41,284 nt of DNA, taken from a virus. A model generated the notes under the pieces. That model ran no database searches. It saw only the letters and a program-made list of their open reading frames with translations, and was not told the origin of the DNA. The first letter of the stretch is position 1. Each line of letters starts with the position of its first letter. Made by a program: the position numbers and the translations under genes. Below, in pieces: positions 17,991 through 21,035 of this stretch. Location: the IMG/VR virus record IMGVR_UViG_3300031539_000107, positions 1 to 41,284 of that record. The stretch is one strand, 5' to 3'.

Positions 17991-20394
17991 CGGTCCCCAT
18001 CTCCACTCTGAGGTTGAGTCGGATCCCACCATACCCGTGCAGACGGCGTGCGCCCACCAGGCGGTCCCGGATGGACAGCTTACGCGCGCCTATCCTGCGC
18101 TTGAACGTCTTCTCTGTACCAGACTCCTCCCCGCGCTGGCGGCACCAGACCGCCCAAGCGGAGTAGAGCTCTTGACGGCTGGACGTGAAGTCCTCGCCCA
18201 GCTCGCACTCCTCCTCCAGCCAGGCGCCGAACGTGTCCTCCGTCTCCTTGTACTCCGCCGTCTTCAGGGTCACAGCGGACGGGGGCGTCAGGCCCTCCCT
18301 CTGCCAGGCGACGCATCCCTCGATCATCCAGTGCAGGATCTGGGGACCCTCCCGCTCCAGCAGCTTCTGGCTCAGGTTCTCGATCTGCTTCTCGCGCGGT
18401 ACCTTTCGGTTAAACGGGACGATATGGATCCGGCGCAGCATGGCGTCGTCCACAACCCGTATCTCGGGCTCGTGGTTGCCTACGATCACGATCTTGAACT
18501 GGGGGCTGTACGTGAACGGCTGGCCGTACAGGAAGCGGGCCGTGATCTCGTCCCCTCCCGTGATCGCCTTGATCCGCTTCTCGTCCCAGCTGTGGCCGGC
18601 GGAGGGCTCGGTCGCCGTGACCAGGCGTACGCCAGGGAGCCGGGCCAGGTCGGCAGGGATCTCCCCCCTCCTGGGGCCGACAAAGGTGTCGACGTCCACG
18701 GTGTCGTGGTAGTCGCCCAACAGCTCCGAAATCACCCGGATGAACGTGCTCTTGCCCGTGTCGGCGTCACTCCCCCAGATGAACCAGAGTGTCTTCTCGC
18801 TGATGTCGCCCGCGAGGGTGTACCCGGTGACCTTCTGGAGGTACCGGACCAGGGCCGGGTCGGACCCGGTCAGGTCGCGTAGGAACGCAGCCCAGGCCGG
18901 GGCTGGCCCCTCCGCTGGCCCGACCGCGGTCGAGCGTGCGTGCAGCTGCGCCGGGTCGGGAGGTACGATCGTACCCGTTTTGAGATCGACGACGCCGGAG
19001 GGGGTGTTGAGGAGGTAGGGGTCGGCGTCGAACGCGTCCTGGGGGACGGCGACGTACGCCTGGAGGAGGTCGCCCACGGCCTTGATCCCGGACGCCCCCT
19101 GGAACTTCCGGGCGGCGGTCTTGATGGGCCCCCCCTCCCTGCCCGGGGCGGCCTCTCCGCGCGCCTCCAGGTCCAGGCAGAGGTTGCGGAGAATCTCCCG
19201 CAGCCGGAGCTGGTGGTCCATCCCCTCGTCCCGGAGCCAGCGGTGGCCGTCCCAGACGTACCAGGCCTTGGAGGAGGCCACGTACCGGAGCTCCCCCTCC
19301 ACCTGTCCCCGTACCTGGTCCGTGACCCACTCGTCCGTGTACCGGACCCGGTCGGGGCCCTCTACCCACGGGGAACTAGAGTCCAGGATGCCCACAGACG
19401 TGTCAGGCGCCTCCAGGTCTGCCACGAACGCGTCCCGGGCCGCGGAGTACTCCCCCGCCGCCTGGGCTCGATCCAGGAGAAAGCTCCAACCCAGCCGGTA
19501 GGGACCGTGCAGGCTGTCCCAGTCCGCCTCGACCCACTCCAGGTCGTTGTGTCCCCCCTCCCATCGGCTGGCCCAGTCCAGGGCGATCACTTTCGCCCCG
19601 ACCTCGTCGTCCTGGCCGGCGGCCTTGATGGCGTAAAGGTAGTTCATGTACCCGGACCGGTGCTCTTCCACATTGGGCAGCTTCGCCACCAGCTCACCCA
19701 GGGCCTCGATGGAGGGCGCCTTAAGGTCGTCCTGGGGCGGTGGGGCAGCCTGGGCGGCCCCGGTCCCCACCAGCTCCACCTCCGCCCCCTTGGACTGCAG
19801 CGCGGCCCCCAGGGCTTTCAGGAAGGCCAGGGCCCGGTCGCCCGTGATCAGGCACAGGTCGTCCGGGCTCCACTCCCAGAGAGGTATACCTGACCAACGG
19901 TAGTCGACCCCTGAGGGGTGCTTCCCGCTGACGAGGTACTGGCGCCCGTCGCACAGCCACTCAACAGTGTGGCTCCTGCTCTTCCAGGTGATCACCAGCG
20001 CCACTCTGGCGAACGGGGCCGCGGTACGGTACACCAGCAGCCGGCGCGGGTCCCGGGAGAGACGGACGGGGGCCTCCCCCAGTTGCTGCACCGCGAACTT
20101 GTGGACGACGTCGGCCAGCTGGGGGTCGTCGCAGTCGATGTCCAGGCCGGGCCAGCGGTCACCCTTGATTCCGATGTTGGCCCCGGAGTCGGACCACCTC
20201 TTGGCCGTAGGCCTGTGGACGTCCTGGGTGGTCCAGGGGTACCCGGCCCAGGTCCCGTCCGCCTTCTGGACGCCGGGAACCTTGCCCAGGCTATCCGGCT
20301 TGATCGTGGTCCCCTCCGCGAGCGTGGAGCCTGGGGGAATCACGCTGACGAGGTCGGTGAAACCTGAGTCGAAGAGCTGCAGGGCGGCATTCAT
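17983..20394 (-). CDS. Bifunctional primase-polymerase / SF3 (P4/D5-type) helicase
   Basis: N-terminal prim-pol features (FTDLVSVIPPGS, GLDIDCDD, SGKHPSGVDYRW). Central NTPSGVVDLKTG. Walker A WGSDADTGKSTF. ITGGDEITARFLYGQPFTYSPQFKIVIVGNHEP is typical of phage/plasmid primase C-terminal domains. Confidence 0.9.
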   Translation of the reverse strand: MNAALQLFDSGFTDLVSVIPPGSTLAEGTTIKPDSLGKVPGVQKADGTWAGYPWTTQDVHRPTAKRWSDSGANIGIKGDRWPGLDIDCDDPQLADVVHKFAVQQLGEAPVRLSRDPRRLLVYRTAAPFARVALVITWKSRSHTVEWLCDGRQYLVSGKHPSGVDYRWSGIPLWEWSPDDLCLITGDRALAFLKALGAALQSKGAEVELVGTGAAQAAPPPQDDLKAPSIEALGELVAKLPNVEEHRSGYMNYLYAIKAAGQDDEVGAKVIALDWASRWEGGHNDLEWVEADWDSLHGPYRLGWSFLLDRAQAAGEYSAARDAFVADLEAPDTSVGILDSSSPWVEGPDRVRYTDEWVTDQVRGQVEGELRYVASSKAWYVWDGHRWLRDEGMDHQLRLREILRNLCLDLEARGEAAPGREGGPIKTAARKFQGASGIKAVGDLLQAYVAVPQDAFDADPYLLNTPSGVVDLKTGTIVPPDPAQLHARSTAVGPAEGPAPAWAAFLRDLTGSDPALVRYLQKVTGYTLAGDISEKTLWFIWGSDADTGKSTFIRVISELLGDYHDTVDVDTFVGPRRGEIPADLARLPGVRLVTATEPSAGHSWDEKRIKAITGGDEITARFLYGQPFTYSPQFKIVIVGNHEPEIRVVDDAMLRRIHIVPFNRKVPREKQIENLSQKLLEREGPQILHWMIEGCVAWQREGLTPPSAVTLKTAEYKETEDTFGAWLEEECELGEDFTSSRQELYSAWAVWCRQRGEESGTEKTFKRRIGARKLSIRDRLVGARRLHGYGGIRLNLRVEMGTDA
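17987..18004. repeat. 18-bp gene-junction repeat, copy 2
   Basis: Identical to 17791-17808. Confidence 0.9.
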
Positions 20395-21035
20395 ACCACA
20401 CCAGCCTTCGGGAACGGGAGAGCGGGGAGGAGGATGCTCTTCTCCCCGCGATGCGTAAGAGGCTTCAGGTACTGGTACTGCATGAAGACATGTTTCACAG
20501 CTCGCTCTTTCCCGGCGCGCAGCCTAGCTGCCTTCGGGCCAGAAGTCCACCCACGCTTGTCCACGGGCGCGCGGTTCAGAAGCGACTTATGGAACCACTC
20601 CCCGTCCAGAAGATAGAACTCCCCTTGATGTTGCCCCACGAACCGGAAATTGGAAGCCTGGTAGACCGCACCCAGCTTGCCACACCTCTCGTCGGCGAAG
20701 GACCGGACCAAATGCACGTACGGGCGGGCCGCACGGAGCAGCCGAAGGGACGCAGCGATCGCGTAGGACGGCAGATTCTGTGGGTGCCCGTCCTCAAAGT
20801 ACATCCGATTCAGCTCCACAACCTCCCGGGGTGAGAGCGTCGTGAACGTCCGCGTCACCCTGGGGTTCATCATCGGCCCGTACTGGAGGACACCCACGAG
20901 CGTGCCATCGAGCCACACCCCGTGATGGGTGTGGGAAGACCACACCACGGACCCAGAGTAGTGGTGCTCCTCCATGCGGGCCACCGCGATGCTCTTCTCC
21001 ACGGGTCCAACGAGGACGCTGTCGCGGAGGCTCAC
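20391..21035 (-). CDS. GNAT-fold, Mom-like acyltransferase (putative DNA modification enzyme)
   Basis: GTGA overlap with the polymerase stop and ATGA overlap with the primase start. Motifs: [67 protein letters not shown]. Confidence 0.45.
   Translation of the reverse strand: [214 protein letters not shown]

Follow-up and report, generated by a model that had tools for sequence, protein, structure and literature searches.

An accessory mom homolog in the replication operon of an uncultured podovirus-like phage, predicted to encode a DNA adenine-modifying enzyme

The viral sequence IMGVR_UViG_3300031539_000107 of IMG/VR (positions 1 to 41,284, here called the window) harbors a homolog of mom, the DNA modification gene of phage Mu, and this homolog lies on the minus strand between the genes for a family-A DNA polymerase (PolA) and a D5/VirE-type primase-helicase (Table 1). 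The 214-residue open reading frame (ORF) had been reported without a strand in an initial annotation of the sequence, and the five protein motifs listed there are all present in the translation, in the order described. The start codon is GTG; the frame, 215 codons from stop to stop, is already closed on the 5' side of this codon and leaves no room for an N-terminal extension of the ORF. The 4-nt overlaps that had been described at both ends can be read directly from the sequence. The PolA gene ends with ...GAG CGT TAC CGT AAG TGA on the minus strand, with the mom GTG lying within AAGTGA, and the mom stop codon is shared in the same manner with the start of the primase-helicase gene (ATGA). Eight of the 10 gene junctions in the minus-strand operon overlap by 1, 4, or 8 nt, and the overlaps flanking mom thus reflect the normal packing of the operon rather than anything particular to this gene. 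The Shine-Dalgarno-like sequence preceding mom is only moderate. The RNA around the start displays no unusual structure in comparison with shuffles (fold z = -0.49), and a sequestered start of the Mu type was rejected on these grounds.

Profile, sequence, and structure searches all confirm the initial view that the product is a Mom-family protein with a GNAT fold. The protein matched Pfam PF25680 (Mom) with an E value of 3.1e-50 and a score of 171.1 bits against a cut-off of 27.1 bits, and the alignment, which places residues 8 to 210 on profile positions 3 to 202 of 202, spans the full length of the family. It also matched PHROG 1384, annotated as "Mom-like DNA modification protein," with an E value of 2.7e-45. 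In tblastn searches against 50,697 phage records, the best matches from cultured phages were the Mom proteins of Mu, D108, SfMu, and Mu-like Yersinia phages, and identity to Mom of the Mu/D108/SfMu type was 44% over 91 to 92% of the protein. The sole sequence match in the PDB was 8BV8, "Methylcarbamoylase mom," which is Mu Mom (E = 5.6e-43). An AlphaFold2 model, built from an alignment of 68 homologs that also served for our analysis of residue conservation, was confident (mean predicted local distance difference test score [pLDDT], 92.7; predicted template modeling [TM] score, 0.87). With this model, the top structure found by Foldseek was again 8BV8 (chain A; E = 3e-24; TM scores, 0.87/0.84; root mean square deviation, 1.9 Å over 209 columns), and the next matches were generic GNAT acetyltransferases with TM scores of ~0.5 and sequence identities of 7 to 13%. 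A Pfam scan gave no match to the canonical GNAT families, and an NCBIfam scan assigned the protein to no family. A profile search and a structural comparison with Mu Mom had been proposed as checks, and both gave strong matches. We consider membership in the Mom family to be virtually certain.

The residues important for Mu Mom have been defined by mutagenesis. Mu Mom consists of a GNAT fold with an essential helix-turn-helix (HTH)-like insertion (residues ~175 to 209) that has been proposed to bind DNA (Silva et al., Nat Commun 2026, PMC13219725). Activity is abolished in the R111A, S124A, and R151A variants and drastically reduced in H58A, Y59A, Y159A, W181A, W48A, and R111K (PMC13219725), and the D149A exchange also impairs the enzyme (PMC7261163; numbering there is offset by 10). 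In the alignment, H58/Y59 of Mu correspond to H25/Y26 of the window protein, R111 to R77, S124 to S90, D149 to D115, R151 to R117, Y159 to Y125, and W181 to W147. All of the Mu Mom residues that mutagenesis has implicated in catalysis are thus conserved. H25, Y26, R77, D115, R117, and Y125 are invariant across the 68 homologs, the column of S90 contains Ser or Thr, and that of W147 contains Trp in 64 of the 68 sequences. The HTH-like insertion is also present. Window residues ~141 to 181 align continuously to the Mu insertion, with a loop that is six residues longer than in Mu, the longer loop being the majority form in the family. In the AlphaFold2 model the insertion consists of a strand (residues 146 to 149), a helix (166 to 174), and a strand (180 to 192) with pLDDT values of 87 to 96, and it falls within the columns superposed on 8BV8.

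Over 8,000 Mom homologs have been reported from metaviromes (PMC13219725). The window protein belongs to a metagenomic clade whose members are 50 to 72% identical to it, distinct from the Mu/enterobacterial clade (~44%). When genome contigs were scanned with the single protein, no match was obtained. An alignment-based scan of these contigs detected only prophage homologs with identities of up to 45%, from Enterobacterales, Rhodospirillales, Sphingomonas, Desulfovibrionales, and others, and the host of the phage cannot be inferred from them.

The window represents essentially one podovirus-like phage genome of ~41 kb with a G+C content (GC) of 67%. The same Mom protein is encoded on a 41,298-bp metagenome contig in ENA. 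A megablast search of the replication region against the 50,697 phage records gave no match, so that no deposited phage is closely related to this one. The packed segment of the replication operon (Table 1) encodes, in order, an SNF2 helicase, an HD hydrolase resembling deoxynucleoside monophosphate (dNMP) phosphatases, two small ORFs, a DUF2800 PD-(D/E)XK nuclease, an Enc34-type single-stranded DNA-binding protein (SSB), PolA, Mom, the primase-helicase, a 67-residue ORF (g67), and a MazZ/MazG-like protein. A PHROG-704 exonuclease, a RusA-like resolvase, and a small HTH protein are encoded in the same long minus-strand block, and the plus-strand block carries an SU10-type portal gene along with major capsid, adaptor, and amidase genes. 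A perfect inverted repeat separates the end of the minus-strand operon from the convergent structural genes, and its position indicates that it is a probable bidirectional terminator.

Table 1. Positions of the mom homolog, its start and stop overlaps, and surrounding features in the window
Feature	Position	Strand	Evidence
mom homolog, Mom-family GNAT-fold (predicted) DNA adenine-N6 modifying enzyme, 214 aa	20391..21035	minus	Profile, sequence, and structure matches
GTGA, mom GTG overlapping PolA TGA stop	21032..21035	minus	Sequence reading
ATGA, primase-helicase ATG overlapping mom TGA	20391..20394	minus	Sequence reading
Shine-Dalgarno-like GGGGGAG, 11 nt upstream of mom GTG, inside PolA coding end	21047..21053	minus	Sequence reading
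Family-A DNA polymerase, 687 aa, upstream neighbor	21032..23095	minus	Pfam DNA_pol_A E=2e-22; PHROG 17 E=6e-108
D5/VirE-type primase-helicase, 803 aa, downstream neighbor	17983..20394	minus	Pfam D5_N E=9e-23, DUF5906; PHROG 1156 E=8e-116
HD hydrolase, dNMP phosphatase-like	25694-26212	minus	PHROG 318 E=2e-17
MazZ/MazG-like, nucleoside triphosphate (NTP) pyrophosphohydrolase-like	17312-17794	minus	Pfam PF18909 (dATP/dGTP diphosphohydrolase N-terminal domain) E=1e-11
Packed replication operon segment	17312..27413	minus	Profile matches and junction overlaps
Perfect 17-bp inverted repeat, 6-nt loop (ACAAAGCCTCGGCAGTT / AACTGCCGAGGCTTTGT)	17249..17288	unstranded	Repeat search

No tRNA gene was found in the window. 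Profile scans of the window ORFs detected neither an integrase, PurZ, or a DNA methyltransferase nor an accessory biosynthetic gene of the amidotransferase or methyltransferase type. The description of the phage as lytic-looking is consistent with the lack of an integrase match but is not proven, and some PolA relatives (MW202898 and Ralstonia phage DU_RP_II) carry recombinases. A search for Mu Com in the window produced only a chance-level match (tblastn, best E = 0.51). With no com match and PolA as the upstream gene, we rejected com-mom regulation of the Mu type. Scans for promoter and terminator consensus sequences between 16.9 and 34.3 kb gave counts equal to those in shuffles, with nothing adjoining mom, and are therefore uninformative as to an internal promoter.

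We examined whether mom is a fixed part of the replication operon by comparing related loci, and our results demonstrate that it is an accessory cassette occupying variable slots, because the PolA/primase junction lacks mom in the relatives and a sister contig holds mom elsewhere. In the closest IMG/VR relative as judged by PolA (L012; PolA and primase 46% and 40% identical, respectively), the primase ATG overlaps the PolA stop codon (TGATG, ~6930 to 6960), with no gene in between. In MW202898 (PolA 42%), a VirE-type primase follows PolA directly, and in Ralstonia phage DU_RP_II only a 68-residue ORF lies between the two genes. The sister contig (L022, from logan SRR31012004) encodes PolA, primase, MazZ-like, and Mom proteins that are 53%, 43%, 61%, and 72% identical, respectively, to those of the window. 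Its PolA/primase junction (2032 to 2385) is occupied by a gene for a 117-residue HAD-like protein (motif DLDGT) with a G+C content at third codon positions (GC3) of 0.67, and mom is found further downstream, directly after the MazZ-like gene, with GTGA start and ATGA stop overlaps. The PolA/primase junction is thus a hot spot with differing cargo across the relatives, and the exact slot of mom between PolA and a D5-type primase is absent from every other locus examined. In both the window phage and the sister contig, the GC3 of mom is ~0.78 to 0.79, compared with 0.89 to 0.95 for the PolA and primase genes. The higher conservation of Mom (72%) than of PolA (53%) and primase (43%) between the two phages argues for selection on its function. 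There is no sign of a recent transfer of mom between them, as mom (72% nucleotide identity) is about as similar in the two phages as the best-conserved parts of PolA are (66 to 71%).

Placement among replication genes is not peculiar to this phage, contrary to what the initial annotation had implied, as other Mom homologs are likewise encoded in early or replication operons and joined to both neighbors by overlaps of 4 nt. The Mom-like gp32 of Arthrobacter phage Liebe is encoded among genes for SSB, exonuclease, resolvase, and primase. One metagenomic homolog (P0017, on contig L026) is encoded immediately after a DnaB-like helicase, and another (P0014, on L024) lies behind DnaC-like and DpdA genes, in each case with 4-nt overlaps on both sides. 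On these two contigs (L024, 5883 to 8687; L026, 3234 to 6512), the Mom homologs are located a few genes away from a gene for a DpdA-family protein (PF23859, the 7-deazaguanine DNA transglycosylase family) or a PF20691 "TAGT" protein. This raises the possibility that these phages combine two DNA hypermodification systems.

As for the biochemistry of the family, Mu Mom by itself moves glycine from Gly-tRNAGly to the N6 of adenine in double-stranded DNA, and the attached glycyl group then undergoes a rearrangement on the base that yields N6-carbamoylmethyl-deoxyadenosine (ncm6dA, or 6-NcmdA) (PMC13219725). In Mu, this momylation takes place after replication and affects ~20% of deoxyadenosine (dA) residues, in an S-A-S context, and Mom without any other phage protein suffices for momylation in Escherichia coli (PMC13219725). 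The gene is toxic in Mu, where it is confined to the late phase (PMC7261163). The suggestion that the modification in the window phage is replication-linked does not agree with a Mu enzyme that acts after replication on double-stranded DNA and needs no phage partner, nor with the lack of mom at this locus in the nearest relatives. The position in the operon argues for co-expression and not for a mechanistic link.

We consider it likely that the window gene encodes a functional Mom enzyme that uses Gly-tRNAGly to generate ncm6dA in double-stranded DNA, and that it serves as an anti-restriction cassette co-expressed with the replication genes. The chemistry in particular, with a glycyl donor and ncm6dA as the product, is probably identical to that of Mu. 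The mom gene would share its transcription and translation with the replication genes, and its expression probably relies on translational coupling, given the moderate Shine-Dalgarno sequence, the lack of Com, and the lack of special RNA structure at the start. The enzyme would then take a glycyl group from Gly-tRNAGly, which must come from the host as there is no tRNA gene in the window, and attach it to the N6 of adenine in duplex phage DNA, where the adduct would rearrange to ncm6dA. Modification would follow DNA synthesis and begin as soon as replication does, on new phage DNA and, incidentally, on that of the host, with no need for the Dam/OxyR/C/Com control of Mu. Progeny DNA modified in this way would be protected from restriction; ncm6dA blocks many restriction endonucleases. 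As 52% of all dA in the genome is in an S-A-S context, modification could be dense if the specificity of Mu holds. The number of S-A-S sites (7093) is somewhat lower than in dinucleotide shuffles (7486 +/- 19), but nothing can be concluded from this depletion because coding constraints confound it.

Several points weigh against this interpretation. At 44% identity, extending the donor and the product of Mu to the window protein is an extrapolation, and the function that we predict for this protein and its subclade comes from comparison with Mu. The authors of the Mu study state that co-substrate and substrate are not predictable from structure (PMC13219725). The expression timing that we propose is read from the gene order only. 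The window protein begins at about residue 38 of Mu Mom and lacks ~35 N-terminal residues, including the stretch corresponding to the basic residues 11 to 19, which are unstructured in Mu and have been proposed to aid tRNA binding (PMC13219725). In Mu Mom a deletion of 10 N-terminal residues is tolerated and a deletion of 20 lowers activity, and the W48A variant is monomeric with only residual activity (PMC13219725). This dimer residue, W48, is replaced by Ser (S15) in the window protein. On the other hand, at least nine other homologs in the 68-sequence alignment have an equally short N terminus, and the shortness is therefore a trait of the lineage and not a truncation. Trp is found in the W48 column in only 7 of the 68 homologs, all of the Mu-like clade. 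Neither the N-terminal segment nor W48 is thus a defining feature of the Mom family.

These same features could be taken to indicate a Mom-family enzyme with an altered donor, base, or sequence context that forms an adduct other than ncm6dA. The initial annotation had likewise allowed that adduct, target base, and donor might differ from Mu, and we found no sign in support of this, as all of the experimentally important residues are conserved. In favor of altered chemistry are the missing N terminus with its putative tRNA-contacting stretch, the loss of W48, and the separation of the metagenomic clade from the Mu/enterobacterial clade. Against it, the active-site residues of Mu are all kept and the fold superposes at 1.9 Å, no accessory biosynthetic gene was found in the window, and homologs picked at random from metagenomes are referred to as having activity in the in vivo assay used for Mu Mom (PMC13219725). 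We therefore regard altered chemistry as unlikely. Unlikely too, and to a slightly greater degree, is a more specific variant in which a "minimal Mom," devoid of the Mu dimer interface and of the tRNA-contacting tail and co-translated with the replisome, would act on DNA as soon as replication begins, and might do so with another aminoacyl-tRNA or in another context, giving a new or unusually dense adenine adduct.

The gene might also be an inactive or decaying passenger, a remnant of horizontal acquisition, as its GC3 (0.79, versus 0.89 in the neighbors), its short N terminus, and its absence from most relatives might suggest. We consider this very unlikely, because the ORF is uninterrupted and has all catalytic residues in place, the model of the fold is of high confidence, the short N terminus is common to other homologs, and the copy in the sister contig is conserved above the level of the flanking replisome genes. 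Finally, although GNATs are functionally diverse and many generic members were retrieved by the fold search, an acyltransferase that resembles Mom in fold only and acts on a protein, tRNA, or small molecule is extremely improbable in view of the 44% identity to Mom compared with 7 to 13% for the other GNATs, the presence of an arginine specific to Mom (R111 in Mu) and of the HTH-like insertion proposed to bind DNA, and the lack of a match to canonical GNAT families. None of the alternatives has positive evidence beyond the short N terminus, and a functional Mom enzyme with the chemistry of Mu remains our preferred interpretation.

Further observations concern the neighboring genes and the remainder of the window. 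The HD hydrolase and the NTP pyrophosphohydrolase that had been noted in the same operon are both real (Table 1). To our knowledge, these two nucleotide-pool enzymes play no part in momylation. The pair resembles the accessory enzymes of Z-genome phages, but the PurZ synthase is lacking. The Z-genome pathway (PurZ/DatZ/MazZ), which these neighbors had suggested, was rejected as no Adenylsucc_synt match was obtained when every window ORF of at least 300 residues was scanned or otherwise assigned. Downstream of mom, a nearly identical string of ~21 nt (GGAGATGGGGACCGATGC) is present on the minus strand at the junctions from primase to g67 (~17990) and from g67 to the MazZ-like gene (~17794; window 17787 to 18007). 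Both upstream proteins, the primase and g67, end with ...EMGTDA*, and both junctions are 8-nt overlaps with the next Shine-Dalgarno sequence and ATG. The repeated string could be a duplicated junction for translational coupling or the trace of a small-cassette insertion. Between positions 34000 and 38800 of the window, the GC is 61 to 64%, compared with 66 to 71% elsewhere, and several ORFs there lack the high-GC3 signature. A 691-residue ORF in this stretch (36686 to 38761, plus strand) has no Pfam match and is a possible receptor-binding or tail-fiber protein. The stretch may be a recently exchanged host-range module. Owing to the GC of 67%, the window also contains very long spurious antisense ORFs, such as one of 683 residues (13171 to 15222, minus strand) opposite the ORF at 14183 to 16219 (plus strand) and one of 651 residues (21137 to 23092, plus strand) opposite PolA. 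The real frames were selected by GC3 analysis.

The mom homolog is a further member of a known and recently mechanistically solved family and does not represent a new class of system; its neighborhood is novel in the particulars yet of a familiar type. Our analysis predicts that an uncultured, high-GC, podovirus-like phage carries hypermodified adenine, which bears on sequencing, on restriction behavior, and on surveys of the arms race between phages and their hosts. The phage also provides a natural case of mom without the elaborate safety controls of Mu, in the form of a plug-in cassette in a replication operon, and its naturally short, W48-less variant could help to establish how small a Mom enzyme can be and what determines its binding to tRNA and DNA.

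Among known systems, Mom has been assigned to the aminoacyl-tRNA-dependent class of GNAT-fold transferases (PMC13219725). FemX/FemABX, L/F-transferase, MprF, and PacB share with it the GNAT fold and the use of an aminoacyl-tRNA ester as acyl donor, but display no detectable sequence relationship to the window protein, and their acceptors are peptidoglycan precursors, proteins, lipids, and nucleoside antibiotics, not DNA. Mom domains are also found fused to restriction-endonuclease domains in jumbo phages (PMC7824862).

The closest counterpart is Mu Mom itself (gp55; 8BV8), with which the window protein shares the Pfam family, the fold, the key residues, and the HTH-like insertion, and in both phages the system consists of a single gene with no phage tRNA. 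The window protein is shorter by ~35 residues at the N terminus, has Ser in place of W48, and has an insertion loop six residues longer. The regulatory contrast with Mu that had been drawn from the sequence also holds. The window phage has no com homolog, and thus no Com translational activator, and its mom lies inside the replication operon and not in a separately regulated late operon. Mu restricts the toxic mom gene to the late phase through control by Dam, OxyR, C, and Com. In Mu, mom is the last gene, preceded by com, at the right end of a transposable myovirus genome, whereas in the window it precedes the primase gene and follows PolA in a podovirus-like, apparently integrase-less genome. 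In its location the window gene is more similar to the non-Mu genes annotated as "Mom-like" or "acetyltransferase" (PHROG 1384), including those of Arthrobacter phages Liebe and Maureen, Pseudomonas phage JD024, and Vibrio phages and cyanophages, which belong to the same family and are often found in early or replication blocks. In sequence, the window protein is nearer to Mu Mom (44% identity) than to the actinophage copies (33%).

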